Counted from the stretch's first letter, positions 1 through 19,586 are shown. The stretch is 64,000 bases of DNA from Trueperaceae bacterium (GCA_965213705.1 OZ243913.1:3264001-3328000), one strand, 5' to 3'. The notes: generated from the letters alone by a model not told the origin. A program made the numbers and translations.

Positions 1-306
1 GTTTCTGCGCAAACATGGGCAGAATTTGTAGAAGTTTTGTACCGTGACAAGTTCGACAAGTATCTTTCCGACTTAAGGCGAAAAGCCTTTCTCGACTCTG
101 TAGAGGCAGTTAGTTTCACAGTAGAGATTCAGGAAACCATCACAGCCTGCCGCGACCCGAAGGACGATAAGTTTCTCGAGGTAGCAGTCAACGGCCTCGC
201 AGATGTCATCGTCACGGGTGACAAAGATTTGTTAGTGCTAGACCCTTTCAGAAATATTCCCGTTGTCGAAGCGCGGGCCTTTCTCGAGACCTTCGGCGAA
301 ACTTGA
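1..306 (+). CDS. PIN-domain toxin, 5'-truncated by the window edge
   Basis: Frame is open from base 1 (VSAQTWAEFVEVLYRDKFDKY...); C-terminal CRDPKDDKFLEVAVNG-ADVIVTGDKDLL is typical of the PIN_3/MJ1680-like toxin family. Confidence 0.85.
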   Translation, partial: VSAQTWAEFVEVLYRDKFDKYLSDLRRKAFLDSVEAVSFTVEIQETITACRDPKDDKFLEVAVNGLADVIVTGDKDLLVLDPFRNIPVVEARAFLETFGET

Positions 307-357
307 CCTGCCTTATGTTCGGCTGTCTCCACCAACACTCGTCAACCGTCCGAGAAT

Positions 358-1059
358 TTAAACACCTAAATAGCGCCGCTTCAGCTCGGGCTGCGCGGCG
401 AGGTCTAGGCTCGAGCCCGTCCACACCACGCGGCCCTTTTCCAAAACATAACTGCGGTCGGTGACGCTCAGCATTTCCGAGAGGTTGCTGTCCACGATGA
501 GGATGGCTTGGTTCTCGGCTTTGAGCTGCTTGATGCTGCGCCAAATGTCCTCACGCAGCAGCGGCGCGAGCCCTTCGGTCGCCTCGTCCAGGACGAGCAG
601 CTTTGGGTTGGTGAGGAGGGCTCGAGCGATGGCGAGCATCTGCTGTTCGCCACCCGAGAGTTGGTTGCCCAAGTTCCGCCGCCGCTCCTGCAGGCGGGGG
701 AACAGGTCGTAAACGCGCTCGAGCGTCCAGGCGTCGGGTTTGTCAAACGGGTTACGCGCGGTGGCGACGAGGTTTTCCTCGGTGCTCAAGTTGGGGAAAA
801 TGCGCCGTCCCTCTGGCACCAATCCGAGGCCGCGCCGCGCGATTCGGTGTGCAGGTTGACCGCTGACGAGCTTGTCTTCAAAGTGAATCTCGCCGCTACT
901 CGGCGGGGTCAAGCCCATAATGGAGCGCACTGTCGTCGTTTTGCCCATGCCGTTGCGCCCGAGCAGACCGACTACCTCGCCTGCGCCGACCTCCAAACTC
1001 ACGCCGAACAGGACTTGCGACGCGCCGTAGGCGGTGTCGATGGCGGTGACGCTGAGCAC
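358..1059 (-). CDS. Branched-chain amino acid-type ABC transporter ATP-binding protein (LivF-like)
   Basis: Walker A GRNGMGKTT, LSGGEQQMLAIARAL, VPEGRRIF. Confidence 0.93.
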   Translation of the reverse strand: MLSVTAIDTAYGASQVLFGVSLEVGAGEVVGLLGRNGMGKTTTVRSIMGLTPPSSGEIHFEDKLVSGQPAHRIARRGLGLVPEGRRIFPNLSTEENLVATARNPFDKPDAWTLERVYDLFPRLQERRRNLGNQLSGGEQQMLAIARALLTNPKLLVLDEATEGLAPLLREDIWRSIKQLKAENQAILIVDSNLSEMLSVTDRSYVLEKGRVVWTGSSLDLAAQPELKRRYLGV

Positions 1060-1060
1060 C

Positions 1061-1816
1061 CTAAACCTCCTCGTTCAGGTAAGCCCGCTGTACCTCGGGG
1101 TCGGCGCGGACTTCTTCGGGTCTTCCCGTAGCTAGAAGCGTGCCGTAAACGAGCACCGACACGCGGTCGGCCAGGCTGAAGACCACGTCCATGTCGTGTT
1201 CGACGAGCAACGTAGCATAGTCCTGTTTAACGGTTTCAATAAGCTGAGCCATCCGCTCGGTTTCGCTCGGCCCCATTCCGGCCATCGGCTCATCCAGGAG
1301 CAAGACTTTGGGCCACGTCGCCAGCGCCATCGCCAGCTCGAGCTGCCGCCGCTGCCCGTGCGACAGGTTCGCGGCGCGAGTATCAGCGTCAGCGGCCAAA
1401 CCTACTCGCTCGAGCAAAACCCGCGCCTCATCAATAAGACGCTTGTCCCGCCGCGCGTCCCGCCAAAAGTGAAAGTGGTGCTTTTCGTTCGCCTGCACGG
1501 CCAGCGCGACGTTCTCAAGGACGCTGAACTCGAGCAGCACCGCCGTAATCTGAAACGACCGCGCCACACCGAGGCGGGCGCGCTCCGGCATCGACACCCG
1601 TGTGATGTCGCGCCCCTCGAGTGTGATAGTCCCTGCGTCCGGCGTCAACTGCCCGCTCAGTTGCGCCAGCGCAGTCGTCTTGCCTGCACCGTTCGGGCCG
1701 ATGAGCGCGTGGATTTCACCGCGGTGAAGCTCGAGGTTTAAGTCGTTCGACACCAGCAGCGCCCCGAAGGCCTTGCGCAACCCTCTCACTTGCAACAGCG
1801 GTTCAGTCACCCTCAC
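1061..1816 (-). CDS. ABC transporter ATP-binding protein (LivG-like)
   Basis: GPNGAGKTT, LSHGQRRQLE, LLDEPMAG, VEHDM. Confidence 0.93.
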   Translation of the reverse strand: MRVTEPLLQVRGLRKAFGALLVSNDLNLELHRGEIHALIGPNGAGKTTALAQLSGQLTPDAGTITLEGRDITRVSMPERARLGVARSFQITAVLLEFSVLENVALAVQANEKHHFHFWRDARRDKRLIDEARVLLERVGLAADADTRAANLSHGQRRQLELAMALATWPKVLLLDEPMAGMGPSETERMAQLIETVKQDYATLLVEHDMDVVFSLADRVSVLVYGTLLATGRPEEVRADPEVQRAYLNEEV

Positions 1817-2795
1817 CCCCGATGAGCAAGCCCGCCAGACCGCGCCGCGCGAACAGGACGATGAGGACGAGCAGCGGGCCGAAAAAAATCTGCCAGTGCT
1901 CGGTAACTGAGACGAGGGTTTCCTCGAGCAGCAAAAACGCCCCCGCGCCGAGTACCGGCCCGACGAGACTGCCCATCCCGCCCAAAATCACCATCACCAG
2001 CAGTTCGCCCGAGCGCGACCAGTGGAGCAGGTTCGGTGAGACGAACTCGGTCTGGTTGCCGAGGAGCGCGCCCGCCAGTCCCGCCACCGCGCCCGCGATG
2101 CAAAACGCCGCGAGCCGGTAAGGGAGGGGTCGGTAACCGAGCGCGCGCATCCGCAACTCGCTACTTTTCAACCCGCGCAGGGTCCGCCCGAAACGCGCGT
2201 GGACGAAGCGCCAGAAGAGAAACATGCAAGCGAGCAGCAAAGCGTAAGAAACGTAAAACATCGTCAAGCGGTCGCCTAAGTCGAGGAGCGGCAGCGTGTT
2301 CGGCCCCCACCACAGCGAGAGGCCGTCGTCGCCGCCGTAGGGCTCGAGCGAGACGAAGAAAAAGTACAGCATCTGCGCGAACGCCAGGGTAATCATGATG
2401 AAGTAAACCCCCTTGGTGCGCAGCGAAATCACGCCGATGACGAGGGCGAACAAAGCCGAAACGAGCATCGCCAGGGGCCAGACAATGAGCGCCTGGTTCA
2501 TCCACGGCCCCGCGCTGAGGCCCAAAAACGCCTCTTCCTCAAAGGCGTGCTGCGACAAAATAGCGAAGGTGTACGCGCCGAGCCCCAAAAACGCCGCGTG
2601 CCCGAACGAGACCAGCCCGCCGTAGCCGAGGATGAAGTTCAAACTCAGCGCCGCCAGGCCGGAGATGACAATGCGGGTGAATACGGGCACGAGGTAACTT
2701 TGGTCGAGGGACAGGGCCACCAGCGGCGCTAGTCCCAAAACGAGGAGAGTGAGGGCGGTGACGGCTCGAGCGCGGTTGATGGGTCGTTCCCTCAC
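1803..2795 (-). CDS. ABC transporter permease (LivM-like)
   Basis: GYGGLVSFGHAAF-G-GAY, LRTKGVYFIMITLAFAQ and GGMGS motifs; start moved to GTG 2795, which overlaps the upstream TGA (GTGA). Confidence 0.9.
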   Translation of the reverse strand: MRERPINRARAVTALTLLVLGLAPLVALSLDQSYLVPVFTRIVISGLAALSLNFILGYGGLVSFGHAAFLGLGAYTFAILSQHAFEEEAFLGLSAGPWMNQALIVWPLAMLVSALFALVIGVISLRTKGVYFIMITLAFAQMLYFFFVSLEPYGGDDGLSLWWGPNTLPLLDLGDRLTMFYVSYALLLACMFLFWRFVHARFGRTLRGLKSSELRMRALGYRPLPYRLAAFCIAGAVAGLAGALLGNQTEFVSPNLLHWSRSGELLVMVILGGMGSLVGPVLGAGAFLLLEETLVSVTEHWQIFFGPLLVLIVLFARRGLAGLLIGGEGD

Positions 2796-3706
2796 GCGCC
2801 CCCGCCGAACAAGCCCTGCGGCCGCCAGGCCAGCACCGCGGCCATCAAAATATAAATCGCCATCGCCGACAAGGACGCGCCCACCGCGCTCGCAAAGCTC
2901 GGCGTTAGAAAAAGACCGAGCACGCTCGGCAAGTACGCGCGTCCCAGCGTGTCGGTCAGCCCGACGAGCAGCGAGCCCACCACGGCCCCCCGAATCGAGC
3001 CGATGCCGCCGATGACAATGACCACAAAGGTGAGAATCAGGATGCTCTCCCCCATCCCCGATTGCACCGCGATAAACGGCCCCGCGACGACGCCCGCCAA
3101 ACCTGCCAACACCGCCCCGAGCCCGAAGATAACGGTGTAAAGCCGTGAAATGTTCACCCCCAGCGCCCCAATCATCTCGCGGTCGCTCGCCCCGGCGCGA
3201 ATCCACATTCCCAAACGGGTGCGCTGCACGAGCAGGTAAAGCCCCAGCACAGTGAGCGCGCCGACGATAATCACCGCCAGTCGGTAAACCGGATAAGGCG
3301 CACCGGGTACGACCTCGACCGTCCCCAGCAACCAAGGCGGCACGTCGATTCTCAAGGGTTGCCGCCCCCAAACGACCCGCACGAGTTCGTTGAAAAATAA
3401 AATAAGCCCGAAGGTCGCCAACACCTGGTCCAAGTGGTCGCGTTCGTAAAGCCGCCGGATGACCGCGAACTCCACAACCATCCCGGTCAATCCTGCCGCC
3501 ACCGTGCCCACGAGCAAGCCCAACAAAAACGAGTCCGTCTGCACGCTCACCGTCGCCGCCACATACGCCCCCACCATAAACAGCGAGCCGTGCGCCAGGT
3601 TGATGAGGTTCATAATTCCGAAAATAAGCGTCAGCCCCGACGCCATGAGCAGCAGCGTGACGCCGAGCTGGACGCCGTTGAGAAGTTGCTCGAGAAAGAG
3701 GAGCAT
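2792..3706 (-). CDS. ABC transporter permease (LivH-like)
   Basis: GLTLIFGIMNLINLAHG, GGIGSIRG, RPQGLFG motifs; multiple TM segments. Confidence 0.92.
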   Translation of the reverse strand: MLLFLEQLLNGVQLGVTLLLMASGLTLIFGIMNLINLAHGSLFMVGAYVAATVSVQTDSFLLGLLVGTVAAGLTGMVVEFAVIRRLYERDHLDQVLATFGLILFFNELVRVVWGRQPLRIDVPPWLLGTVEVVPGAPYPVYRLAVIIVGALTVLGLYLLVQRTRLGMWIRAGASDREMIGALGVNISRLYTVIFGLGAVLAGLAGVVAGPFIAVQSGMGESILILTFVVIVIGGIGSIRGAVVGSLLVGLTDTLGRAYLPSVLGLFLTPSFASAVGASLSAMAIYILMAAVLAWRPQGLFGGGA

Positions 3707-3716
3707 AAGTTTAAAT

Positions 3717-3775
3717 AAGGGAGTGGGAAGTAGGGTGTCAAGTCAAAAGCTTTTACTCCCTACTCCCTACCCCCA
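3717..3775. repeat. Heptamer-based inverted repeat (AGTAGGG / CCCTACT units)
   Basis: aagggagtgggaagtaggg...tactccctactccctacccc between the substrate-binding gene and the LivH-like gene. Confidence 0.6.
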
Positions 3776-3781
3776 CCTCCC

Positions 3782-4942
3782 TTACCGCCCCATCTCGCAT
3801 TCGGCCGCGTAAGCGTCCGCGTGGGCCTCGAACACCTTGCCGACGAGCTTGTTGGTGACGTTGCCGCTATCGTCCACGTAAGCCTGACGGACGTAGATGT
3901 CTTGAATCGGGTAGTGGTTGGTGTTGAACTCGAAGTCCCCACGGACTGAAACGAAGTCGGCTTCCTCGAGCGCAGCAATAAGCGCCGCCGTATCGTCCAC
4001 GTTGCCGTTGACTTTTTCCAAGGCCGAGAGAATGAGGTTGCCGGTGTCGAAACCCTGGCTCGAGTAGAGCGTCGGGTACTCGTCGTACTTCGCCTTGTAC
4101 GCCTCGACGAACGCTTTGTTCGCCTCGTTGTCTAAATCGGGCGACCACTGCGAGGTGTTGAAAGTTCCGGCAGCCTCCGCACCGACGGCGTCCAGCAGCG
4201 TGTCGTCGAACGAAAAGGCGGGGCCGAACAGCGGAATCTGGTCGACCAAACCCGCTTGACCGTACTGCTTGACAAAGTTGATGCCCATCGCGCCGGGATA
4301 AAAGAAAAAGACCGCGTCGGGGTTCGTAGCGCGAAGGGTGGAAATCTCGGCGGCGTAGTCGGTCTGGCCGAGCTGGGTGTAGACCTCACCGGCGATGTCG
4401 CCCTGGTAAAAACGCTTGAAGCCGGTCAGCGCGTCCTGGCCCGCCGGGTAGTTCGGGGCGAGGAGGTAAACGTTTTGAAAACCCTGGTCGGTGACGTACT
4501 GGCCCATCGCCTCGTGCAGGTTGTCGTTTTGCCAAGAGGCGCTGAAGTAGTTCGGGTTGCAACCTTTGCCCGCCAGTTCCGACGGCCCGGCGTTGGGCGA
4601 GATATAAACCACACCCTCACGCACCAAACGCGGAATCGTCGCCATCGCGATGTTGGAAAAAATCGAACCCGTCATAATCTTGACCCCGTCGCGCTCGACC
4701 ATCCGCTCGACAAGGCCCACGGCGGTCTCGGGGTCGAGGCCGTCGTCGGCGACGAGCAAGTCGATTTGAATGGGGCTCTCACGCATTTCGACGGCGAGTT
4801 CAAATCCTTTTTGAACCTGCTCGCCTAAATAACCGCCCCCGGTCGACAAGGTGGTGACCATGCCGATTTTGACGGGGTCTTGGGCGAGAGCGAGGCTTAA
4901 GAAGAGGGTGGTGATGAGACTCAGGATAAGTTTTAATTTCAT
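3782..4942 (-). CDS. ABC transporter substrate-binding protein (Liv/PBP1 family, aromatic-acid-binding type)
   Basis: Signal peptide MKLKLILSLITTLFLSLALAQ, KIG motif, PNAGPS and APNYPAG motifs; ATG 4942 overlaps the upstream stop (ATGA). Confidence 0.88.
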   Translation of the reverse strand: MKLKLILSLITTLFLSLALAQDPVKIGMVTTLSTGGGYLGEQVQKGFELAVEMRESPIQIDLLVADDGLDPETAVGLVERMVERDGVKIMTGSIFSNIAMATIPRLVREGVVYISPNAGPSELAGKGCNPNYFSASWQNDNLHEAMGQYVTDQGFQNVYLLAPNYPAGQDALTGFKRFYQGDIAGEVYTQLGQTDYAAEISTLRATNPDAVFFFYPGAMGINFVKQYGQAGLVDQIPLFGPAFSFDDTLLDAVGAEAAGTFNTSQWSPDLDNEANKAFVEAYKAKYDEYPTLYSSQGFDTGNLILSALEKVNGNVDDTAALIAALEEADFVSVRGDFEFNTNHYPIQDIYVRQAYVDDSGNVTNKLVGKVFEAHADAYAAECEMGR

Positions 4943-5769
4943 GTTTTTCCTTTCTCGAGCAGCTCCAAAACGGCTGCCCTGACAGTTTGCCACTGCGGGG
5001 TGGTAGCGACGACGATTTCGAAGTGGCCGGTGTCGGCCAGACTTTCCAGGCGAACCTCCTCGCCCCCCTTTTTCGCTGCGGCTTCGTAGAGTTTAACGTA
5101 GCTTATAGGAACCGTGTCGTCTTGAACGCCCTGGATTAAGATTTGCCGAACGCCGAGCGGGAGGAGTTCGGCGGGCGAGCCCTGCGCGTAGCGTTCCGGT
5201 ACCTCTTCGGGCGTACCGCCCATGAGTCTGTCGGGCGCGTCCGGGCAAATGTTCTGGTTTAAGGCTTTTGCTAAATCGGGAATCCCAGCCAAGGAGACGA
5301 CGCCGCGCAACTCGAGCGGCTTCTCCACATAAAGTTCGCTGTCCGAGTTGAGGTTGTGACGGCCTGCCAGCCACAGGGCCAGGTGTCCGCCCGCCGAGTG
5401 GCCGACGGTGAGGACTCGAGCCAAATCGAGGTCGTAATCGTCAGCCATCATCCTGAGAAAATCTGTACCTCTAGCGACATCTAAAAACGTGTTGGGCCAG
5501 CCGCCGTCAACGTCCAAACGGCGGTACTCGAGGCTCCACACGGCTACCCCGTCGTTCGTCAGGGCTCGAGCAAATTGACCCATGTACTCGAGGTTGACCC
5601 GCGCCCGCCAACAACCGCCGTGCAGCAAAACCACGACCGGATGCGGCCCTGCTCCATCAGGCAAATAGAGGTGTCCGAACTGCTCTGTATGAGGGCCGTA
5701 GCTCAAAACAACGTCCGGCGGCACCTTGGGCAGCGCCAGCAAATCATCGACTGTGAGCAAACTCGCCAC
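4939..5769 (-). CDS. Alpha/beta hydrolase (HGG-type esterase/formamidase-like)
   Basis: LHGGCW oxyanion motif, GHSAGG nucleophile, D-VP and GHF triad residues. Confidence 0.88.
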   Translation of the reverse strand: MASLLTVDDLLALPKVPPDVVLSYGPHTEQFGHLYLPDGAGPHPVVVLLHGGCWRARVNLEYMGQFARALTNDGVAVWSLEYRRLDVDGGWPNTFLDVARGTDFLRMMADDYDLDLARVLTVGHSAGGHLALWLAGRHNLNSDSELYVEKPLELRGVVSLAGIPDLAKALNQNICPDAPDRLMGGTPEEVPERYAQGSPAELLPLGVRQILIQGVQDDTVPISYVKLYEAAAKKGGEEVRLESLADTGHFEIVVATTPQWQTVRAAVLELLEKGKT

Positions 5770-5780
5770 GCGACCTAAAC

Positions 5781-6551
5781 CTAACTTGTCACGAGCGCCA
5801 GCACCCGCAGCGGACTTCCCGAACCGCCTACGAGCTTGAGCGGCGGGGTGATGAGGAGTGCGCCCTTGGGCGGCAGCTGGTCGAGGTTCGCCAAGCTCGC
5901 CAGTCCGAACTTCCCGGCCCCGTGAAACAGCGTGTGCGCGGGAAAAGCCGGGTCGAACCCGCCCGCCGCGCCCGCGTCGGTGCCGACGGTTTCCGTACCG
6001 AAGCCGAGAACGTCGCGCTCCACCAGCGCCTTGACCGCCTCAACTGAGGGACCGGGCGACACCGGCCCGTCCTCTTTGAGATTGAGAAACGCTTCCCCTT
6101 GCCGTTTCGACCAGTCGCTGCGGAGCAGCACCCACGAGCCCGCTTCGATGGGGCCGTGCTTGTCTTCCCAGGTTTCAATGTGCTCAGGCGTGAGCAAAAA
6201 GCCCTCGTCTTCTGCGACCTCGTTACTCACGTCGATGACGTTGGCAGGCGCGACGAGCTTGCTCGGCGGGATGGTGTCGGTCGTGTGCTCGGCCAGGTCT
6301 TTGCCCGTCACCCAGTGAACCGGCGCGTCGAAGTGGGTGCCGGTGTGCTCGCCCAAGGTGAGGGTGTTCCAGTACCAGGCGGGGCCGGCGTCGTCGTAGC
6401 GCGAAATCTCGGTGACGCTTAAACCTGGCGACGGCGCGAACATGTCAGGCAGCGCGATGACGGGCGTGCCGGGCTCGAGCGGCTGCGTCAGGTCGATGAC
6501 CCTGACCTTCCCCGAAGCGAGGTCGGTGATGAGGTTGGCGAGGGTGGACAT
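5781..6551 (-). CDS. Cyclase-family metal amidohydrolase, isatin hydrolase-like
   Basis: GEHTGTHFDAP-HW-TGKD metal motif; ISRYDDAGPAWYWN, GTDAG-AGG--P-FPAH and FGLASLANLD segments match, from recall, isatin hydrolases better than KynB. Confidence 0.8.
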   Translation of the reverse strand: MSTLANLITDLASGKVRVIDLTQPLEPGTPVIALPDMFAPSPGLSVTEISRYDDAGPAWYWNTLTLGEHTGTHFDAPVHWVTGKDLAEHTTDTIPPSKLVAPANVIDVSNEVAEDEGFLLTPEHIETWEDKHGPIEAGSWVLLRSDWSKRQGEAFLNLKEDGPVSPGPSVEAVKALVERDVLGFGTETVGTDAGAAGGFDPAFPAHTLFHGAGKFGLASLANLDQLPPKGALLITPPLKLVGGSGSPLRVLALVTS

Positions 6552-6612
6552 GGTGGGGTTCCTTTCTGAGGATGCAGAGGAGATAGGAGGCGGAGGAGCG
6601 GAGGAGAAAAAG

Positions 6613-6662
6613 CTTCTGACTTTAACTTTCTGCTTTCTACTTTTTACTCGGTACTAGGTACT
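6613..6662. repeat. Period-7 tandem repeat
   Basis: ttctgac tttaact ttctgct ttctact ttttact cggtact aggtact; overlaps the last codons of the decarboxylase beta gene. Confidence 0.65.
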
Positions 6663-7231
6663 TCTTTCTTCCCTTGAATAAACCGCCGAAACCTGAACGC
6701 GTTCTCGCTCAGCCCCAAATCCATCCCGTACTTGTCCGGCCCGACGGCCCGCACTTTGGCGACGATGACGCTGAGGTCGTCGCGCTCAAAGGCCTCCAAA
6801 ACAGCTTCGCCAAAGTTGAGAGGCGTGTCCACGGACGCGACATGTTCGATGCCCGCGCCCTTGGCAATCGCGGCCAAGTCGGTAATTCCGGCGGTCGTGT
6901 GCGAACTGAAGCCGCCGGTCGAGAGTAGCGAGCCGTTGTCGAAGATGATGTGGACTATATTTCTCGGGCGGTAGCGGGCCAGGGTGGTGAGGGTGCCCAG
7001 GTTCATCAGCACCGAGCCGTCGCCGTCGAGCACCACGACGCGCTCTTCGGGCAGGTGCGCCGCCAGCCCCAAGCCGATGGACGAGGCCAGCCCCATCGCG
7101 TGTTGCAAGTAAAAGAAGTTCTCGCGGTGGCCCAGGTTGTAGAGTTCCTGAGCGCAAGCGCCCATGATGGTGACGACGAGCTTGTCTTGCAACTCGGGGT
7201 AGATAACTTCCAAACAGCGAGCGCGTTCCAC
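6644..7231 (-). CDS. ThDP-dependent decarboxylase beta subunit (ComE/phosphonopyruvate decarboxylase C-terminal-like)
   Basis: MGLASSIGLG and the GDGS...IFDN ThDP-binding motif. Confidence 0.85.
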   Translation of the reverse strand: MERARCLEVIYPELQDKLVVTIMGACAQELYNLGHRENFFYLQHAMGLASSIGLGLAAHLPEERVVVLDGDGSVLMNLGTLTTLARYRPRNIVHIIFDNGSLLSTGGFSSHTTAGITDLAAIAKGAGIEHVASVDTPLNFGEAVLEAFERDDLSVIVAKVRAVGPDKYGMDLGLSENAFRFRRFIQGKKEVPSTE

Positions 7232-7245
7232 TTAATCCTCCACGC

Positions 7246-7764
7246 CTAATCCTCCATCAAGTCCCTGGTGAGCAGAAGCGCGACGGGCGACAAAGAACTC
7301 TGCGAAAACGTGTAAGCCTCGCGAATTTGCTTGGCGACTTTATTCGGGTCTCGAGCGTGCTCGAACGGGATGCCCAGCGCCCGCAACACCTCCTCGGTGA
7401 TAATTCCACCGCGCGTGTGCCACGGGTACGGCTCGCCCCAGTGCCCGCGAAAAGCGATGAGCATACATAAGGGCACGCTGTAGAGTTGCGCCAGCGAGAC
7501 GATGGCGTTGACGGCCGCCAAAAAGCCGTGATTTTGCATCAGCAGCGCGTGGGGTTCGCCCGCGAAGTACGCGCCTGCAGCGATGCCGATGGCCTCTTCT
7601 TCTTTGGCAACCTCGATGAGTTGGATGTCCGGGTCGTCTTCGGCGCGCTGCAACAGGTGGATGAGCCAGGTTTCGGGCAGCGCCGACACCGACTTAATGC
7701 CCGCTTTTTTGATGCCCTCGAAGACGATTTTCGAATTTTCGTAGGAGACCGACAAAGAGCGCAC
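7246..7764 (-). CDS. ThDP-dependent decarboxylase alpha subunit (ComD-like)
   Basis: KEEEAIGIAAG with conserved Glu, LMQN-G, IAFRG; adjacent to the beta subunit; exact start uncertain. Confidence 0.85.
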   Translation of the reverse strand: MRSLSVSYENSKIVFEGIKKAGIKSVSALPETWLIHLLQRAEDDPDIQLIEVAKEEEAIGIAAGAYFAGEPHALLMQNHGFLAAVNAIVSLAQLYSVPLCMLIAFRGHWGEPYPWHTRGGIITEEVLRALGIPFEHARDPNKVAKQIREAYTFSQSSLSPVALLLTRDLMED

Positions 7765-7784
7765 CTCTCTTGCAGACGCTGGAA

Positions 7785-7890
7785 TGACGCTTTTAAAAAC
7801 CTTCTGGACAACAATATCATCCTAGCTGCGGAGAAAGTCAACGTATAAAAGGTTTAGGTTGAAAATAAATTTTGAAGTGCGTATGATTTG
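7785..7890. promoter_or_regulatory. AT-rich divergent promoter region; candidate MarR operator and -10 box
   Basis: AT-rich stretch with imperfect palindrome TTTAGG-TTGAAA and TATGAT before the SDR gene; a MarR gene ends the rightward operon. Confidence 0.4.
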
Positions 7891-7904
7891 GGGGTGGAAG
7901 TAAC

Positions 7905-8660
7905 ATGGAGCTAGCGGGCAAGCACGCGGTCGTAACCGGCGGCGGTCGCGGCATCGGCGCGGCGGTCGCGGCGGCGCTCGGCGCGGCCGAGGCAAAGGTC
8001 ACGCTGATGGGCCGGACGTTGGACGTGCTCGAGGCCACCAGAGACCGTCTCGAGAAAGCCCAGATTATCCAGCTCGACGTGAGCGACGAGGGCGGCGTGC
8101 GGGACGCTTTCGAAAAAGCCGCCGAGGACTTCGGCGACATCGACATCCTCATCAACAACGCCGGAATCGCCGAGAGCGCGCCGTTCGAGAAAACGCCCCC
8201 TGAGCTTTTCCAGCGTTTGTTGAACGTCAACCTCATGGGCACCGTTCACTGCACACAGGCCGTTTTGCCAGGCATGAAAGCGAACGGCTGGGGCCGTATC
8301 GTCAACATCGCCAGCACCGCCGGGTTGACCGGCTACGCCTACGTGAGCGCCTACTGCGCCAGCAAGCACGCGGTGGTCGGGCTGACAAAGTCTTTAGCCG
8401 TAGAGCTTGCTCGCACCGGCATCACCGTCAACAGCCTCTGCCCCGGCTATACAGAGACCGACATGCTCGGCGAGAGCTTGAGCAACATCAGCCAAAAAAC
8501 TGGAAAGACGCAGGAAGAGGCGAGGGCGGTGCTCCAAAACCCACAAGGCCGTTTCGTCCAGCCCGAGGAGGTCGCGGCGGCGGCGCTGTGGCTGTGTGGG
8601 GACTCGAGCGGTTCCGTCACCGGGCAAAACATCGTCATCGCTGGAGGAGAACTTGTTTAG
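7905..8660 (+). CDS. SDR oxidoreductase of the anthraniloyl-CoA cluster (3-hydroxyacyl-CoA dehydrogenase-like)
   Basis: TGGGRGIG, NNAG, YCASK; context. Confidence 0.9.
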   Translation: MELAGKHAVVTGGGRGIGAAVAAALGAAEAKVTLMGRTLDVLEATRDRLEKAQIIQLDVSDEGGVRDAFEKAAEDFGDIDILINNAGIAESAPFEKTPPELFQRLLNVNLMGTVHCTQAVLPGMKANGWGRIVNIASTAGLTGYAYVSAYCASKHAVVGLTKSLAVELARTGITVNSLCPGYTETDMLGESLSNISQKTGKTQEEARAVLQNPQGRFVQPEEVAAAALWLCGDSSGSVTGQNIVIAGGELV

Positions 8661-8676
8661 GAATTGGGAAAGAAAG

Positions 8677-9098
8677 TGAGCGGGCTCGAGCAGAGGCACA
8701 AACTGCTGCAACCGCCGGGCTGGCCCGCGCCGAAGGGTTACTCAAACGGGGTGGTGGCGAAAGGGCGGCTGGTCTTTGTGGCGGGCCTCATCGGTTGGAA
8801 CGATAAAGGTGAGTTCGAGAGCGACGGCATGGCCGAGCAAACGAGGCAAACACTGCAAAACGTCGTCACGGTCTTGGCCGAAGCTGGAGCCAAACCCGAG
8901 CACGTCGTCCGCATGACCTGGTACATCACCGACAAAGCCGAGTACCACGCCAACCTTGCCGCCATCGGCAGCGCCTACCGCGAGACGTTTGCCAGGCACT
9001 ACCCAGCGATGGCGATGGTACAAGTGGCCGCGCTGATGGAAGACCGCGCCAAGGTCGAAATCGAGGCGACTGCCGTGATACCGGAGGACGAAACGTGA
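8677..9098 (+). CDS. RidA/YjgF family protein
   Basis: [16 protein letters not shown]...[11 protein letters not shown] 8677 preferred over TTG 8664. Confidence 0.88.
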
Positions 9099-9931
9099 GT
9101 GCCTATCAACTCAGCTTGACGGACTTAAAACTTGCGAACTACGAAGCCAAGCACTTTCTGTGGGAGGTCTCGGACGGCCTCGCCACGCTCACGCTGAACC
9201 GTCCCGAGCGCAAAAACCCGCTCACCTTCGAGTCTTACGCCGAGCTGCGCGACCTGTTTCGCAATTTGGTCTACAGCGACGACGTGCGGGGCGTCGTCAT
9301 CACCGGGGCGGGAGGTAATTTCTGTTCGGGCGGCGACGTGTTCGAAATCATCGGCCCCTTGACCAAAAGCAGCATGAAAGACTTACTCGCTTTCACCCGC
9401 ATGACCGGCGACCTGGTCAAAGCGATTCGCGCCTGCCCGCAGCCGGTGGTGGCGGCTATCGACGGAGTGTGCGTCGGGGCGGGCGCTGCGATTGCGATGG
9501 CCTGCGACTTGCGCTACGGAACACCGGACGCCAAGGTCGCTTACCTGTTCGTGCGGGTGGGTTTGGCGGGCTGCGACATGGGCGCTTGCGCGATTCTGCC
9601 GCGCATCATCGGCCAGGGCCGCGCCGCCGAACTCCTCTTTACGGGCCGCAGCATGAGCGCCGAGGAGGGCGAGCGGTGGGGCTTTTACAACCGGGTGTGC
9701 GAGGCTGGAGTGCTCGAGGAGGCCCAAAACACGGTGCGCCGTCTTCTGCAAGGCCCGACCTTCGCCCACGGCATCACCAAGACGATGCTCAACCAGGAAT
9801 GGAACATGAGCGTGGAGCAAGCCATCGAAGCCGAGGCGCAAGCGCAGGCCCTGTGTATGCAAACTGAGGATTTTGTACGGGCGTTCGAGGCGTTTGCGGC
9901 AAAGGGAAAGCCCGTTTTCGAGGGGAATTAG
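9095..9931 (+). CDS. Enoyl-CoA hydratase family protein
   Basis: [14 protein letters not shown], crotonase-fold motifs. Confidence 0.92.
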
Positions 9932-9932
9932 G

Positions 9933-11135
9933 ATGAAGCCTTCAAACGACACCCCGCCGACAGCGGGCACCGACCGCACCTTTCTCTCGTGGCCCTTTTT
10001 CGACGAGACGCACCGGCAGCACGCGGCGGGCCTCGAGCCCTGGGCTGCTAAAACCTCCAACGAAATTCCACATGGTGACGACGTGGACGCGAGCGTACGC
10101 GCTTGGGTCGGGGCGTTGGGTCGAGGTGGGTGGCTCGAGGCTTGCGTCTCGAACGAAGGCAAGCTCGACGTGCGCACGCTCTGCCTAAGCCGCGAAACAC
10201 TTTCCCGTTTCGACGGGCTGGCGGACTTCGCCTTTGCGATGCAGGGTTTGGGGAGCGGCCCTATCAGCCTGTTTGGCACCGACGAGCAAAAGGCCGCGTA
10301 CTTGCCCGCCGTGGCGAAGGGCGAGAAAATCGCCGCCTTCGCCCTCTCCGAACCCGTGGCCGGGTCGGACGTGAGCGCGCTTGCTACCACGGCTGAACGC
10401 GACGGTGACGGCTTCGTGCTGAACGGTGAAAAAACCTGGATTTCCAACGGCGGCATCGCCGACTTTTATTTGACTTTTGCACGTACCGGGGAAGCGGCGG
10501 GCGCGAAGGGCCTGAGCGCCTTCATCGTTGACGCGGACACGGAGGGGCTGCGGGTTGCCGAGCGCATCGAGGCGAGCGCGCCGCATCCCTTGGCTCGGCT
10601 GGCGCTCGAGAACTGCTGCGTCCCCGCGTGCAAACTCGTCGGGGAGGCGGGCCGCGGTTTCAACGTGGCGATGGCGACCCTGGACGTGTTCCGCTCGACG
10701 GTGGGCGCGGCGGCGCTCGGTTTCGCGCGACGGGCGCTGCAAGAAACGTTGGCACACACGACGACGCGGCAGCTTTTTGGCGAGCCCTTGGCAGACATGC
10801 AACTCACTCAGGCCAAACTGGCCGACATGGCCCTCGAGATTGACGCTTCCGCCCTGCTCGTCTACCGCGCCGCCTGGACCAAAGATTGCGTGCAGGAGCG
10901 CGTTTCGCGCGAAGCCTCGATGGCGAAACTCTACGCGACCGAGGCGGCGCAGCGCGTCGTGGACGCCGCCGTCCAACTCCACGGCGGGCGCGGCGTGAGG
11001 CGGGGCGAAACCGTCGAACGCTTATACCGCGAAGTCCGCGCGCTCCGCATCTACGAAGGTGCCTCGGAGGTGCAACAACAAATTATTGCCAAACAGACTT
11101 TGAAGGCGTACAGCGACGGGAAGGAAACTTCGTAG
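9933..11135 (+). CDS. Acyl-CoA dehydrogenase
   Basis: [36 protein letters not shown] 9933. Confidence 0.93.
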
Positions 11136-11170
11136 CCATGCTCTTTTCTCTTTTTGGAGGTGACTGAGCC

Positions 11171-12775
11171 GTGTCTGACGCCACAGCCCATAAAGATACC
11201 TTTGTGCGTGACAACTTACCGCCGCCGGAACAATGGCCGGACTTTGTCAACCTGGACAAGCTCGGCTATCCCGACAGGCTCAACGTCGCGGCAGAACTGG
11301 TAGACGAGGCTGTGAAAAAAGGTTGGGGCGAGTGTCCCTGCATCCGCAGCGACGAGGTGACCTGGACGTATCGAGACCTGCAAGAACGAGTTGACCGCAT
11401 CGCCAACGTCCTCGTCAGTGAACTCGGCCTGGTGCCGGGCGAGCGGGTGCTGCTGCGCGCGGCGAACAACCCGATGATGGTGGCCTGCTACTTCGCGGTT
11501 CTCAAGGCGGGCGGCGTGGTGGTGGCGACGATGCCGCTGCTGCGCGCCAAGGAACTGAGCTACATGGTGAAAAAGGCGAAAGTTCGCCTAGCACTCTGCG
11601 ATGAACGGCTCGAGGACGAGATGACACGCACTCGTGAGCAGTGCGCGGAACTCGAGCACACCCTCTACTTCTACGGCTCGGGGGAACTCGAGACGCTCAT
11701 GGCTGAACAGCCTTCCACTTTCGACGCCGTGGACACCGCTGCGGACGACCCCTGCCTCATCGCTTTCACCTCCGGCACGACCGGCAACCCTAAAGCGACC
11801 GTCCACTTTCACCGCGACATCTTGGCCGTGTGCGACTGCTTTCCAAAGCACATCCTCGAGCCCGAGGCTGACGACGTATTCATCGGCTCGCCGCCGCTCG
11901 CTTTCACGTTCGGGACGGGCGGGCTGGTGTGGTTTCCGCTGCGGGTGGGGGCAAGTGTTTACTTGCTCGAGGCTCCTTCACCCTCCAACCTCGCCGCCAC
12001 TATCGAACGGGTCAAGCCGACAGTTTGCTTCACCTCGCCGACCGCTTACCGGATGATGCTGGAAGAGGGGTGCGACCTCAGCAGCCTCAAAAAATGCGTC
12101 TCAGCCGGTGAAACTCTGCCCAAAGCGACCTTCGACGCCTGGCATGAGGCGACCGGAATAAAACTCATCGACGGCATCGGCGCGACCGAGATGTTGCACA
12201 TATTCATCTCGGCCGCGGGCGACGACATCCGCCCCGGTGCGACCGGCAAGCCGGTGCCGAGCTATGAGGCCAAGGTCGTTGATGAAAAGGGCGAGCGCGT
12301 CGTGGGTGAAATAGGCCGCCTCGCGGTGCGCGGCCCCACCGGCTGCCGCTACCTGGCCGACCCGCGACAGCAGGAGTACGTGCTGGACAGCTGGAACCTC
12401 ACCGGGGACGCTTACCTGGAAGACGCGGAAGGTTACTTCTGGTTTCAGTCTCGAGCCGACGACATGATTATCTCCTCGGGCTACAACATCGCCGGGCCGG
12501 AGGTCGAGGACGCGCTGCTCGGTCACCCAGGGGTGCTTGAGTGCGCTGTGGTCGGCGTGCCGGACGAGACGCGCGGCCACATCGTCAAGGCGTTCGTCGT
12601 GCTGAGCGACGGGCACACGCCCGGTGACGAGTTGGTAAAAGAGCTTCAGGACTACGTAAAGGCGACCATTGCACCGTATAAATATCCTCGAGCCGTCGAG
12701 TTTATAGCCGCAATGCCCCGCACCGGAACGGGGAAGGTACAGCGTTTTGTCTTGCGAGAGAAGGCGACACCATGA
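11171..12775 (+). CDS. abmG: 2-aminobenzoate(anthranilate)/benzoate-CoA ligase
   Basis: FTSGTTGNPK, DGIGATEMLHIFIS and PYKYPR motifs; translationally coupled to the monooxygenase. Confidence 0.82.
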   Translation: MSDATAHKDTFVRDNLPPPEQWPDFVNLDKLGYPDRLNVAAELVDEAVKKGWGECPCIRSDEVTWTYRDLQERVDRIANVLVSELGLVPGERVLLRAANNPMMVACYFAVLKAGGVVVATMPLLRAKELSYMVKKAKVRLALCDERLEDEMTRTREQCAELEHTLYFYGSGELETLMAEQPSTFDAVDTAADDPCLIAFTSGTTGNPKATVHFHRDILAVCDCFPKHILEPEADDVFIGSPPLAFTFGTGGLVWFPLRVGASVYLLEAPSPSNLAATIERVKPTVCFTSPTAYRMMLEEGCDLSSLKKCVSAGETLPKATFDAWHEATGIKLIDGIGATEMLHIFISAAGDDIRPGATGKPVPSYEAKVVDEKGERVVGEIGRLAVRGPTGCRYLADPRQQEYVLDSWNLTGDAYLEDAEGYFWFQSRADDMIISSGYNIAGPEVEDALLGHPGVLECAVVGVPDETRGHIVKAFVVLSDGHTPGDELVKELQDYVKATIAPYKYPRAVEFIAAMPRTGTGKVQRFVLREKATP

Positions 12776-15165
12776 AAATCACCATCATCGGCGGCGGGCC
12801 GGGCGGGCTCTACTTCGCGCTGCTCGTCAAAAAAGAGTGGCCGAGTTACGACGTGACCGTGTATGAGCGCAACGGCCCCGACGACACCTTCGGCTTCGGC
12901 GTGGTTTTTTCGGACGAAACGCTGGGCGTGTTCAGGGACTACGACGTGCCTTCTTACGAGGCGATTCGCCGCAACTTCGCCTACTGGGACGATGTGGACG
13001 TGTATTACAAAGGCCACACCCTGCGCTGCGCGGGCAACGGCTTTGCGGGCTGTTCGAGGATGTCGCTCCTCCTCCTATTGCAAAACCGCTGCCGCGACCT
13101 CGGCGTGAGGATGGTCTTCAACCACGCGGTAGACCCCAAAGACCTGTCCCGCTTCGCCGACAGCGACCTCATCGTCGCCGCCGACGGCATCAACAGCCGG
13201 ATTCGGGACGCGCTCGAGGGTCATTTCGGCACCGAGGTAGACCTGGGTCAGGACATGTTTTGCTGGTTGGGTTCGACGCGGGAGCTCGACGCCTTCAAGT
13301 ATTTTTTCCGCGAAACCCCCGCGGGCGTGGTCCTGGCGCACGCTTACCAGTACGAGCCGAACCGGAGCACCTGGGTCATCGAGATGTCGCCCGAGACACA
13401 CCGCAAACTCGGGTTCGACACCATGAGCGAAACCGAGTACGCCGCCGAGATTGAACAGATTTTCGCCGAGGAACTGGCCGGCCACCCGCTGCTGACCAAC
13501 CGCTCGCTGTGGCGGCAGTTCCCGACGGTGAAAAACGCGCGATGGACTCATAAAAACCTCGTGCTGCTCGGCGACGCCAAGGCGACGGCGCACTATTCGA
13601 TAGGCTCGGGGACGAAGCTGGCGATGGAGGACGCGGTGGCGCTGCTTAACGCCCTCCGCAACACCCCTACAGTGACCGACGCGCTAACCGCTTTCGACCA
13701 AGACCGCCGCGAGGAGGTCGAGAAGACCCAGCACGCCGCCAACGTCTCGCTGCAGTGGTTCGAGAACATGGAGCGCTACTTCGAAATGTCGCCCGAGCAG
13801 TTCGCTTTTGGAGTAATGTCGCGCTCGAAGCAGATTACCTATGAGAACTTGCTGCTGCGGGACAAGGGGTTTGTCGAGCGGGTCCAGAAGGACTTTTTGG
13901 ACGAAGTGCGGGACAAAGGCTTCAACGTCCCAGACGCCACCCCACCGATGTTCACGCCTTTTCAACTGCGCGACATGACCCTTACGAACCGCGTCGTCGT
14001 CTCGCCGATGGCGCAGTATTCCGCCGAGGACGGTTTGCCGAATGACTGGCACTTCCAGCACCTCACCAGCCGCGCGGTCGGCGGCGCGAGCCTCGTCTTC
14101 GTCGAGATGACCTGCCCCTCGCCCGAAGCGCGCATCACGCCGGGCTGCACCGGGTTGTGGAACGAGGCGCAACGGGACGCCTTCAAGCGAATTGTGGACT
14201 TCGTCCATGAGCACGCCGCCTCGAAACTCTGTATGCAGCTCGGCCACGCGGGCCGCAAAGGCTCGACGCAAGTGGGCTGGGAACGGATGGACCACCCGTT
14301 GCCCGAGGCGAACTGGCCCATTTATTCGGCCTCGTCGGTGCCTTATCAGGAGGGCGTCAACCAGGAACCCAGAGAACTGAGCCGCACCGACATGGACAAG
14401 GTCGTGGCGGACTTCGTGCGCAGCGCGCGCTACGCCGATGAGGCCGGTTTCGACATGTTGGAGATTCACATGGCCCACGGCTACCTGCTCGCCAGCTTCA
14501 TCTCGCCCTTGACCAACCAGCGCCAGGACGAGTACGGCGGCCCCATCGAAGCCCGGATGAGGTTTCCGCTCGAGGTCTTCAACGCCTGCCGTGAGGTTTG
14601 GCCCGAACACAAGCCGATGTCGGTGCGATTGTCGGCGAGTGACTGGTCCCCCGGCGGACTGTCCGGCGACGACCTCGTGGCCGCCGCCCGGCTGCTCAAA
14701 GACGCCGGAGTCGACCTCGTCGACGTTTCGACCGGGCAAACGGTCGCGGGCCAAAAACCCGTCTACGGACGCATGTACCAAACGCCCTTCGCCGACCTGG
14801 TGCGGCACGAGGTCGGGATTGCCACGATGTCGGTCGGCAGCATCACCACGCCGGACCAGGTGAACACGATTTTGTTGCAAGGCCGCAGCGACCTCGTCGC
14901 GCTGGCGCGGCCGCACTTAGCCAACCCCTATTTCACGCTGCACGCCGCCGCGCACTACGGCTACAAACCTCAGCCCTGGCCGAAGCCGTACCTCACCGGC
15001 AAAGCCCAAGCGTTCCGAATCGCCGAACGCGAGAACGAGGCGACCAGGGAGTTGCGGCTCAAAACGAGACCGCCGAGCCACGCGGTCGAGGTTGACGAAG
15101 TAGGAGCGGCTGGCGAGGCAACCTTGCAACAGGCCGACGCCCTGCTGGTGGAACAAGGAGACTGA
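12772..15165 (+). CDS. abmA: Anthraniloyl-CoA monooxygenase/reductase (bifunctional salicylyl-CoA 5-hydroxylase/oxidoreductase family)
   Basis: N-terminal FAD monooxygenase (GGGPGG, TFGFGVVFS, GDAKATAHYSIGSGTKLAMED) fused to an OYE domain (SPMAQY, HAGRK, HMAHGYLL). Confidence 0.88.
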   Translation: MKITIIGGGPGGLYFALLVKKEWPSYDVTVYERNGPDDTFGFGVVFSDETLGVFRDYDVPSYEAIRRNFAYWDDVDVYYKGHTLRCAGNGFAGCSRMSLLLLLQNRCRDLGVRMVFNHAVDPKDLSRFADSDLIVAADGINSRIRDALEGHFGTEVDLGQDMFCWLGSTRELDAFKYFFRETPAGVVLAHAYQYEPNRSTWVIEMSPETHRKLGFDTMSETEYAAEIEQIFAEELAGHPLLTNRSLWRQFPTVKNARWTHKNLVLLGDAKATAHYSIGSGTKLAMEDAVALLNALRNTPTVTDALTAFDQDRREEVEKTQHAANVSLQWFENMERYFEMSPEQFAFGVMSRSKQITYENLLLRDKGFVERVQKDFLDEVRDKGFNVPDATPPMFTPFQLRDMTLTNRVVVSPMAQYSAEDGLPNDWHFQHLTSRAVGGASLVFVEMTCPSPEARITPGCTGLWNEAQRDAFKRIVDFVHEHAASKLCMQLGHAGRKGSTQVGWERMDHPLPEANWPIYSASSVPYQEGVNQEPRELSRTDMDKVVADFVRSARYADEAGFDMLEIHMAHGYLLASFISPLTNQRQDEYGGPIEARMRFPLEVFNACREVWPEHKPMSVRLSASDWSPGGLSGDDLVAAARLLKDAGVDLVDVSTGQTVAGQKPVYGRMYQTPFADLVRHEVGIATMSVGSITTPDQVNTILLQGRSDLVALARPHLANPYFTLHAAAHYGYKPQPWPKPYLTGKAQAFRIAERENEATRELRLKTRPPSHAVEVDEVGAAGEATLQQADALLVEQGD

Positions 15166-15170
15166 CGACC

Positions 15171-15644
15171 GTGGCCCCCGAAGTCCTCAGCAAACCCGAC
15201 AAAACGGCCCTGCGGCTGTGGCTGCGCCTCCTCGGCAGCGCCAACCTCATCGAAAACCATCTCAAGCGTCGCCTCCGTGAACACTTCGACGTGACCCTGG
15301 CCCAGTTCGACCTGATGAGTGAAATCGCTCGAGACGACGCGCCCAAAACGATGACCGAAATCTCGCAACTGTTGATGGTCTCGAACGGCAACGTCACCGG
15401 CTTGGTAGACCGCTTGAGCCGGGACGGCCTCGTGCAGCGCGAGCCGTCGCCGGGCGACCGCCGCGTCTACCTCATCATCTTAACCGCCGAAGGAAAAAAC
15501 CTGTTTGCAGAGATGGCGGTCCAACACGAACGCTGGCTGAGTGAATTGTTCAGCGGCTTCGACGAAGCGTTCGTGAGCGCCCTCGCCGAAGACATCAAAA
15601 AACTTCGGGGAGGTTTGAAGGCGGGGCTCGAGGCGCAGGCATAA
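15171..15644 (+). CDS. MarR family transcriptional regulator
   Basis: LRLWLRLL, MVSNGNVTGLVDRL and DRR wHTH motifs. Confidence 0.92.
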   Translation: MAPEVLSKPDKTALRLWLRLLGSANLIENHLKRRLREHFDVTLAQFDLMSEIARDDAPKTMTEISQLLMVSNGNVTGLVDRLSRDGLVQREPSPGDRRVYLIILTAEGKNLFAEMAVQHERWLSELFSGFDEAFVSALAEDIKKLRGGLKAGLEAQA

Positions 15645-15672
15645 GTAGCGGCTGCGCTATGATAGACACGAC

Positions 15673-15903
15673 ATGGAACACGTAAACATCACCCTACCCC
15701 TCGAGCTTAAAACCCGCGCCGAGACCCTGGCGCGTGAAAAAGGCGTTTCGTTAGAAGAGTTCGTTTGCGGACTCCTCGAGGAGCGTGTTTTGTTAGAACC
15801 TACCGAACGTGACCCATTTTTTGCTAAGCACAAAACGTTTGACGGAGACGTCCCTTCCGATCTCGCAGAGAACCATGACAAATATCTGTACGACGATGAA
15901 TGA
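15673..15903 (+). CDS. CopG/RHH-type antitoxin-like protein (orphan)
   Basis: N-terminal RHH pattern (VNITLPLELK...AREKGVSLEEFV); C-terminal DLAENHDKYLY typical of PIN-toxin antitoxins; -10 TATGAT at 15658. Confidence 0.65.
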   Translation: MEHVNITLPLELKTRAETLAREKGVSLEEFVCGLLEERVLLEPTERDPFFAKHKTFDGDVPSDLAENHDKYLYDDE

Positions 15904-15909
15904 TGTTCG

Positions 15910-16386
15910 TTACCGCTGGTACTGCCACGTCCCTCCGACCCGCTTATCCAGGGTGACCTCGTGGTCCGTCTGCCCGGTAACCCGGTAGCCCATGCGCCGG
16001 TAGTAGTTTGTCAGGTCGTCGCGCACCGCGTCCAAAGTCAGGCTGAGGGTGGGGATGTTGGTGCGAATCGCCAACGCTTCGACCTTGGTCATGAGCCAGC
16101 GCCCGTAGCCTTGCGACCGTGCCTCGAGCAAAGTAGCAACGCGGTCTAAGTGCCAACCCACCCCGTCTTCACGCCAGCGCAGGGCGCAAATCACTTCGCC
16201 AGCACGGTTTTCCAGCAACAGCGCGCCGCCGTGCTCGAGCCATTCGCGCATCCTCGCGGGCGTCTCGGCACTTTGCTCGCGCGCTCGAGCGTAAAGCGTC
16301 ACCAACGCGCCCACGTCCTGCAGGCTCGCCTGCCGCAGCCGGGCCGCCTCGTAGGGCTCGGTTTCGGGCGTTACTGTTTTTAACAC
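15910..16386 (-). CDS. GNAT family N-acetyltransferase
   Basis: ARSQGYG acetyl-CoA motif and YYRRMGY. Confidence 0.85.
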   Translation of the reverse strand: MLKTVTPETEPYEAARLRQASLQDVGALVTLYARAREQSAETPARMREWLEHGGALLLENRAGEVICALRWREDGVGWHLDRVATLLEARSQGYGRWLMTKVEALAIRTNIPTLSLTLDAVRDDLTNYYRRMGYRVTGQTDHEVTLDKRVGGTWQYQR

Positions 16387-16404
16387 CGCTCGAGCTTTTC
16401 AAGC

Positions 16405-17534: not shown

Positions 17535-17555
17535 CGGCTCGAGGAAGGCGGGGGA

Positions 17556-19584: not shown

Positions 19585-19586
19585 GC

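Follow-up and report, generated by a model that had tools for sequence, protein, structure and literature searches.

In a 64,000-nucleotide stretch of the genome of a Trueperaceae bacterium (GCA_965213705.1; here genome G000, 4.25 Mb and 98% complete), two divergent operons share a short AT-rich spacer (Table 1). This stretch, G000:C1:3264001-3328000, is called the window below. The leftward operon encodes the alpha and beta subunits of a thiamine diphosphate (ThDP)-dependent decarboxylase, here termed the pair, together with a cyclase-family amidohydrolase, an HGG-type serine hydrolase and a Liv-type importer. The rightward operon encodes an abm-type aerobic aryl-CoA pathway. A preliminary description of this DNA proposed that the pair decarboxylates isatinate and so links isatin to anthraniloyl-CoA metabolism. 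Domain and NCBIfam profile scans confirmed all 16 genes that it had placed in the two operons. The shared promoter region that it put at about 140 bp is a spacer of 140-149 bp with 42% GC, compared with about 61% in the surroundings. By consensus pattern match, this spacer holds four of the seven promoter-like sites of region 1-16500, for which the shuffle mean is 2.2 as a whole.

Table 1. Features of the locus. Positions count from the first nucleotide of the window unless contig coordinates are given.
Feature	Position	Strand	Basis or remark
ThDP decarboxylase alpha (PYR)	7246..7755	-	TPP_N, PF02776; start GTG 7764 or TTG 7755
ThDP decarboxylase beta (PP)	6644..7231	-	TPP_C, PF02775; GDGS...DN motif
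Isatin-hydrolase-type metal amidohydrolase (cyclase family)	5781..6551	-	PDB matches and signature residues
HGG-type serine hydrolase (alpha/beta hydrolase), possibly kynurenine (aryl) formamidase	4939..5769	-	BD-FAE match
Liv-type ABC importer	358..4993	-	Substrate-binding protein 3782-4993, LivH 2792-3706, LivM 1803-2795, LivG 1061-1816, LivF 358-1059
abm-type aerobic aryl-CoA operon	7905..15644	+	SDR, RidA, hydratase, acyl-CoA dehydrogenase, CoA ligase, AbmA-type monooxygenase/reductase, MarR
Divergent AT-rich spacer	7756..7904	.	Promoter-like sites on both strands, consensus matches only
End of PIN-like gene	1..306	+	Label read from sequence; between the leftward operon and the TDO-cupin-Liv-PLP operon
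TDO-cupin-Liv-PLP operon (L098), left of the window	G000:C1:3263501 down to 3255773	-	Genome scan

By every available sequence test, the cyclase is an isatin/oxindole-lactam hydrolase. Its closest solved structures are the isatin hydrolases 5NNB, 5NNA, 5NMP and 4J0N (E 1e-92 to 1e-87). In the excerpt available of one study (PMC6117287), the signature of isatin hydrolases consists of a metal motif, a WxW pocket, an Asp-His dyad and GLAS or GLQC, whereas I(L/I)E marks KynB. The window protein carries the metal motif HxG[T/A]HxDxPxH (H69, H73, D75, H79), the pocket (W59, W61, W80), GLAS at residues 216-219, and D192 and H206 at the places of D193 and H207 of LaIHA. All of these residues are shared with LaIHA, LaIHB and RsIHA (PDB 5NNB, 4J0N, 5NMP) and with IadI, which bears out the earlier assignment to the isatin hydrolase type. 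GLAS takes the place of I(L/I)E, and the TIGR03035 score of 20.4 lies below the cut-off of 223.05. WxW, the metal motif and GLAS occur together in 48 of 49 cyclase homologues from the loci surveyed.

The iad auxin clusters in Roseibium, Ruegeria and Sulfitobacter contain relatives of the cyclase, and another relative adjoins an Azospirillum indole monooxygenase; these relatives are 55-64% identical to it. A comparison with iad-cluster cyclases gave 54-58% identity. Unlike the iad cluster, for which the excerpt consulted of a Variovorax study names no decarboxylase (PMC12633357), the window cyclase is accompanied by a ThDP enzyme and lacks IadC/D/E/G/H. One copy of the cyclase gene (G004:C1:784011-784769; L017:11173-13000) has an in-frame TAG and is separated from beta by an unrelated 338-aa gene, which indicates either a pseudogene or an assembly error.

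Judged by profiles and motifs, the pair is a conserved ThDP-binding split-decarboxylase subclade that is neither ComDE nor a phosphonopyruvate decarboxylase. It has the split ThDP fold with the catalytic Glu and the GDG(x)N motif, but misses the ComD and ComE cut-offs (alpha, TIGR03845, 118.9 against 147.95; beta, TIGR03846, 142.4 against 221.5), and both subunits fall far below that of phosphonopyruvate decarboxylase (TIGR03297, 131.4 and 83.3 against 312.5). The conserved motifs of alpha are PETW, EEE, MQNHG and RGxWGEP, and at least 97% of the 90 sequences compared keep G70-D71-G72..N99 of beta. The 120 best alpha homologues are 81-94% identical, and identity across phyla is 80-96%. Alpha relatives occur in 419 GTDB stretches, and the best 80 of these, which were examined, come from Trueperaceae, Meiothermus, Gemmatimonadota, Acidobacteriota and Chloroflexota. 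Viral contigs yielded no alpha relative, and plasmids only distant ones (at most 34% identity, in 19 records). In one contig (P0146), beta is apparently joined to a PALP-family domain (PF00291) dependent on pyridoxal phosphate (PLP), which may be an artefact.

The solved relatives of the pair are RhiEF (PDB 9IZ3/9IZ4) and AzcBC (PDB 9U8Q/R/S). As in ComD/ComE and RhiEF, a PYR and a PP subunit stand without a middle domain and keep the catalytic Glu and the GDG motif. The window alpha differs in carrying PETW and MQNHG, where RhiE has QNSG and AzcB has PDSL and ENSG. The pair also differs from ComD/ComE and RhiEF in its scores, in the absence of a sulfonate or phosphonate context and in its coupling to an isatin-type cyclase. 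AzcB and AzcC, which we take to be a biosynthetic enzyme of Streptomyces rather than one from a catabolic operon, are 26-28% identical to the window pair and share its split architecture and the RGxxGEP..W motif of alpha. Because AzcBC is an alpha-imino acid decarboxylase, the split architecture is not confined to sulfopyruvate and phosphonopyruvate, and the family evidently takes substrates with non-anionic side chains. The earlier remark that sulfonate and phosphonate genes are missing nearby was upheld. Neither ComA nor phosphoenolpyruvate (PEP) mutase (PF13714) was found anywhere in G000, and no sulfonate or phosphonate gene appeared among the recurring neighbors scanned, although Xsc and cysteate synthase were not searched as families.

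A gene-neighborhood search, suggested in the preliminary description as a check, gave a divided answer. The survey covered 82 loci, namely the best 80 GTDB stretches plus L014 and L015, with overlapping loci and the unpublished G033 locus excluded. Co-occurrence with the cyclase was borne out, as a cyclase of at least 50% identity lies in 41 of the 82 loci, or in 32 when only the 54 long-flanked ones are counted. The expected linkage to abmA was not, since this gene is present in only 3 of 82. A second subclade of the pair, at 51-56% identity, adjoins a cyclase in all five cases. Two class samples, each of 151 evenly drawn genomes, gave 12 loci of the clade, 7 of them with an adjacent cyclase, and 2 more distant matches, neither with one. 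Among 121 Gemmatimonadota genomes, the pair is present in 10 and the cyclase in 12, including all 10 pair carriers, three of them unlinked, and 2 of the 111 others. Within 37 genomes of the window's own family (tallies that include G033 as one genome), the pair was found in 8, the cyclase in 7, all of them pair carriers, the TDO subtype in 6 and abmA in 4. Clean fusions of beta with the cyclase were observed in L090, P0124 and P0133. Further candidates were rejected: frameshifts appear to disrupt P0145, P0147, P0150 and P0197, and the cyclase of P0135 is only partial.

Elsewhere the same type of cyclase is followed by other ThDP enzymes. In cultured Deinococcus, a full-length ThDP enzyme below all NCBIfam cut-offs comes directly after an isatin-type cyclase (L110:11725-13365; L109:17122-18768). 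In Deinococcus psychrotolerans, the abm operon contains the cyclase and a 546-aa ThDP enzyme without an assigned family; both genes recur in KNUC1210. Novosphingobium KACC 22771 has a pair resembling ThDP 2-oxoacid oxidoreductases after the cyclase (L111:25248-29600). That ThDP enzymes of three kinds come after a single type of cyclase argues that the cyclase product is a 2-oxo acid. Taken together, the type of cyclase, the position of the pair outside the ComDE and phosphonopyruvate classes, and the tight coupling of the two make isatinate decarboxylation the likeliest function. We consider it probable that the pair performs a decarboxylation of this type, and this part of the preliminary proposal appears well supported by the comparative evidence.

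Other parts of that proposal were not supported. The linkage between the pair and the abm genes, expected to be conserved, proved to be local (4 of the 8 pair carriers of the family have abmA, besides the three loci above). The Liv importer and the HGG hydrolase, which had been assigned to the isatin route, instead accompany TDO, KynU and abm genes. Orthologues of the HGG hydrolase (53-59% identity) adjoin TDO and KynU in G004 and G002, whereas two of two distant plasmid relatives examined lack this context. In two genomes of another family (L174, L175), an abm-KynU(-TDO)-Liv operon with an importer 49-60% identical to that of the window occurs without pair or cyclase, and in L174 the abm operon adjoins KynU and TDO. 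These contexts indicate that abm, the window importer, TDO and KynU form an ordinary tryptophan-kynurenine-anthranilate module. The HGG hydrolase probably belongs to this module and is possibly a kynurenine (aryl) formamidase. The importer belongs with the abm genes and likely carries an aromatic acid such as anthranilate.

The abm pathway of Azoarcus evansii is the aerobic 2-aminobenzoyl-CoA pathway. Its ligase, monooxygenase/reductase, hydratase, acyl-CoA dehydrogenase, RidA, regulator and importer all recur in the window operon, which is an ordinary member of the same kind. The AbmA-type monooxygenase/reductase scores 1095.3 with PRK08255, above the cut-off of 1078 (the model is named salicylyl-CoA 5-hydroxylase/oxidoreductase), and the CoA ligase scores 358.6 with TIGR02262 (cut-off 375.25). 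Because abm is linked to KynU and TDO, anthranilate is the presumed substrate of the ligase. The TDO gene begins about 500 bp left of window base 1 on the strand of the leftward operon, and is followed by a cupin gene, a second Liv importer and a PLP enzyme of class V. Elsewhere, G000 encodes a true KynU and a KynB-type cyclase, both of which also occur in G036. TDO, the HGG hydrolase and the true KynU are probably the main suppliers of the abm operon. A special role for this TDO was considered and dropped: it scores 277.9 with TIGR03036, below 390.7, but aligns over its full length with canonical TDOs and was treated as ordinary. In L017 (7260-9746) and L018 (7267-9741), a gene of 824-828 aa, by eye a penicillin-acylase-family amidase, stands between the abm operon and alpha, in the position of the window's SDR.

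The PLP enzyme to the left of the window has kynureninase (1QZ9) as its best sequence match, with a TIGR01814 score of 84.9 against a cut-off of 246.4. It shares F102, D177, K203, W229, T256 and R341 with this structure and keeps the fold and PLP site. In its clade, however, NxCS, Gln180 and Leu202 replace the DGNS, His and Tyr of kynureninase, with which it coexists in G000. Leu precedes the PLP lysine in 57 of 58 clade rows, compared with Tyr in 6 of 6 KynU rows, and an invariant Cys-Ser near the N-terminus is likewise unlike KynU. A quick tree places the clade on a branch apart from the 6 KynU rows, with weak support (85). By profile and motif it also falls outside the cysteine desulfurases: scores are below the cut-offs, and alignment to 1T3I reveals that it lacks the Cys of the C-terminal SGHHC motif, presumably the catalytic residue of these enzymes. 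UstD and Fgm3 are aldol-type relatives that act between C-beta and C-gamma, the latter being a weak sequence match.

This clade is present at 28 of the 82 pair loci (one is a 29% outlier), 22 of them with an SNF transporter whose closest solved relative is 4US3, which we take to be MhsT. Gene orders include alpha-beta-PLP-SNF-cyclase, PLP-SNF-alpha-beta-cyclase, Liv-PLP-alpha-beta-cyclase and cyclase-PLP; in a further arrangement, the PLP gene and a permease read from its sequence as APC-type run convergently toward the pair. Thus, three unrelated kinds of amino-acid importer (Liv, SNF and APC-type) accompany the PLP gene. In G000 itself, the cupin-Liv-PLP block is separate from the pair. Several members of the family retain this block, which in G036 comes after KynB-KynU. 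In Novosphingobium KACC 22771, SNF, PLP, M20 peptidase, cupin and PrnB-family heme protein genes lie 10-19 kb from the cyclase (L111:9843-19213). A recurring 864-aa neighbor was discarded as an open reading frame-calling artefact spanning the PLP and SNF genes.

Metagenome loci collected with the PLP enzyme, some of which are near-duplicates, contain the pair in 15 of 35 close homologues (10 of the 14 whose downstream sequence extends 2 kb or more) and in 0 of 13 distant ones. In the 37 family genomes the clade occurs in 10, comprising all 8 pair carriers (some unlinked) and 2 non-carriers. In Gemmatimonadota it occurs in 6 of 10 pair carriers and in none of the 111 other genomes. This nesting of the PLP enzyme within the pair, and of the pair within the cyclase, fits an optional upstream feeding step. 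The genes, their motifs, their linkage and their co-occurrence are direct observations.

Indole, indigo or auxin had been suggested as the origin of isatin. This idea lost ground in G000, where no Rieske alpha subunit, indole monooxygenase, tryptophanase or IadC/D/E/G/H was found. The recurring upstream partners of the pair and cyclase, namely the PLP enzyme and the amino-acid importers, instead point to an amino acid. The cassette needs one whose cleavage yields a lactam and subsequently a 2-oxo acid without the help of a redox enzyme, and dioxindolylalanine (oxidised tryptophan) fits. In the scheme that we propose, all of whose substrates we infer, dioxindolylalanine would enter through an amino-acid importer, the second Liv system here and a carrier of the SNF or APC type elsewhere. 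The PLP enzyme would then cut the C-beta/C-gamma bond by retro-aldol cleavage to give L-alanine and isatin or, if the lactam is opened beforehand, isatinate directly. Isatin would be hydrolysed to isatinate by the cyclase, and the pair would convert isatinate to 2-aminobenzaldehyde and CO2, an irreversible step that would pull the aldol equilibrium. Some oxidase would finally produce anthranilate, which in G000 could enter the abm operon. If isatinate-type decarboxylation is granted, we judge the odds to lean slightly toward dioxindolylalanine as the source of isatin. The whole scheme, with both the isatinate step and the PLP step, is plausible but falls somewhat short of an even chance.

Several reports, each consulted as an excerpt, bear on this scheme. 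PLP enzymes have been described to join alanine and isatin into an adduct of m/z 237 by UstD- or KynU-like chemistry, with a yield of 61% at high substrate levels (PMC13397446). By formula match, this adduct would be dioxindolylalanine. Given that yield, cleavage would presumably need the pull of hydrolysis and CO2 loss. Fgm3 is described as a PLP retro-aldolase (bioRxiv 2023.03.21.533663), and dioxindolylalanine is listed among the major degradation products of tryptophan (PMC8228365). In Variovorax, auxin breakdown passes through C8H7NO3, which is not N-formylanthranilate, and C7H7NO before anthranilate (PMC12633357); we interpret these as isatinate and aminobenzaldehyde. The role of isatin is listed elsewhere as an open question (PMC6221969). 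Open-access text yielded no paper on an isatinate decarboxylase or on a degradation route joining isatin, 2-aminobenzaldehyde and anthranilate. Among the open-access papers listed that name dioxindolylalanine, none concerned bacterial catabolism by its title or the start of its abstract.

A number of observations weigh against the scheme. As the preliminary description had remarked, the aldehyde-oxidising step is not obviously encoded: no gene for it recurs beside the pair among the recurring neighbors scanned and the class samples, and of 10 ALDH-family matches in G000, 7 had their neighborhoods inspected and none links to the pair. The top fold match of the alpha model is AzcB, an alpha-imino acid decarboxylase, although with a pLDDT of 56 this model served solely to name fold neighbors. 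The model of the PLP enzyme (pLDDT 89) matches SufS, KynU and C-DES about equally (TM 0.85-0.88), and hence the fold leaves the chemistry open. The Variovorax excerpt places the IadI-type cyclase downstream of C8H7NO2, so that the cyclase substrate may be dioxindole (PMC12633357). There are also gaps in the co-occurrence: 41 of the 82 pair loci, many of them short, have no nearby cyclase; in G031 alpha is matched, but the window query reveals no cyclase; 4 of the 14 long PLP loci lack the pair; and 4 of the 10 Gemmatimonadota pair carriers lack the PLP clade. In addition, the samples are phylogenetically clustered and the counts overstate independence, for which reason no P value is given.

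These difficulties invite other explanations. It is conceivable, though unlikely, that the pair is an isatinate decarboxylase whose isatin or dioxindole arrives from outside or by another route and that the PLP enzyme is unrelated, which was the core idea of the preliminary description. The coupling of pair and cyclase is indeed tighter than that of either with the PLP gene, and related cyclases occur in iad clusters and beside an indole monooxygenase. The enzymes expected for such a supply were not found in G000, however, and this reading would not explain why the pair-cyclase operon includes PLP and importer genes, arranged in several ways. We regard as improbable a variant kynurenine route, in which the cyclase is a formamidase, the PLP enzyme a kynureninase and the pair active on another 2-oxo or alpha-imino acid in the manner of AzcBC. 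TDO, KynB and KynU adjoin these genes in Trueperaceae-type genomes, automatic names label the beta-cyclase fusions as kynurenine formamidase, and RGxxGEP is common to alpha and its top fold match. Such a route is difficult to reconcile with the GLAS motif and low KynB score of the cyclase, the loss of the kynureninase Tyr, His and DGNS, and the true KynU and KynB-type cyclase already present in G000 and G036, and it provides no substrate for the pair. A similarly low likelihood attaches to the same three chemistries acting on a different amino acid, such as another gamma-hydroxy amino acid that carries a lactam, oxindolylalanine (cleaved by beta-elimination) or a cysteine S-conjugate. The PLP fold suits C-S lyases equally, the invariant Cys-Ser is unlike KynU, RidA follows the PLP gene in L134, and peptidases flank the Deinococcus and Novosphingobium copies. 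Yet the tryptophan-lined pocket of the cyclase is of the isatin-binding type, the oxindole route would need a redox enzyme that the cassette does not have, and the associations with TDO, KynU and a heme protein of the PrnB family suggest tryptophan.

Oxidation of isatinate by the pair directly to anthranilate and CO2 with O2 would dispense with an aldehyde dehydrogenase. This would agree with the lack of a recurring aldehyde oxidiser and with the oxidative ThDP enzyme after the cyclase in Novosphingobium, but neither an FAD nor an Fe-S domain is present in the pair. Reaction of ThDP enamines with O2 is usually a side reaction, and we consider this option very unlikely. We give hardly any credence to the automatic annotation of the pair as a common sulfopyruvate or phosphonopyruvate decarboxylase. 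Such enzymes supply the best NCBIfam matches and the JGI names of the pair, but the scores are below all three cut-offs, neither ComA nor PEP mutase was found in G000, and the recurring neighbors scanned included no sulfonate or phosphonate gene.

Returning to the proposed route from dioxindolylalanine, its broadest form would be a dedicated, multi-phylum salvage of oxidised tryptophan consisting of an importer, a new kynureninase-like retro-aldolase clade, an isatin hydrolase and the first isatinate decarboxylase, with alanine recovered and the ring passed to anthranilate. We put this forward tentatively, as a proposal that may well prove too broad. What may be new is an amino-acid-fed cassette with a specific proposed substrate, in which enzymes of known kinds possibly form a new pathway. 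Searches of open-access text found no described enzymes for this likely route from oxidised tryptophan to alanine and an anthranilate precursor. The enzyme that takes isatinate toward anthranilate is likewise not assigned in the open-access literature found, although the step is invoked in both indole and auxin breakdown. The pair is a small, assayable candidate for this step, and there are two non-homologous alternatives, one of them in cultured Deinococcus. That the pair and an isatin-opening type of hydrolase travel together across several phyla, often with the kynureninase-like enzyme and an amino-acid importer, gives the matter wider reach. If the proposed PLP step is true, it would provide a catabolic route for a common tryptophan oxidation product and a natural isatin-alanine aldolase useful in biocatalysis. 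It would also correct many annotations of “sulfopyruvate decarboxylase” in Gemmatimonadota, Acidobacteriota, Chloroflexota and Deinococcota.

Some neighboring features were noted in passing. The PIN-like gene and a short upstream partner (G000:C1:3263881-3264306) are interposed between the two tryptophan-related operons and are probably a toxin-antitoxin system; a second lies at window positions 16672-17394. An amidohydrolase, a BadF-type kinase and a deaminase at 17523-20369 form, by eye, a catabolic run of the N-acetylglucosamine type. A selenophosphate synthetase gene, SelD-like by eye, is located at 32567-33643.

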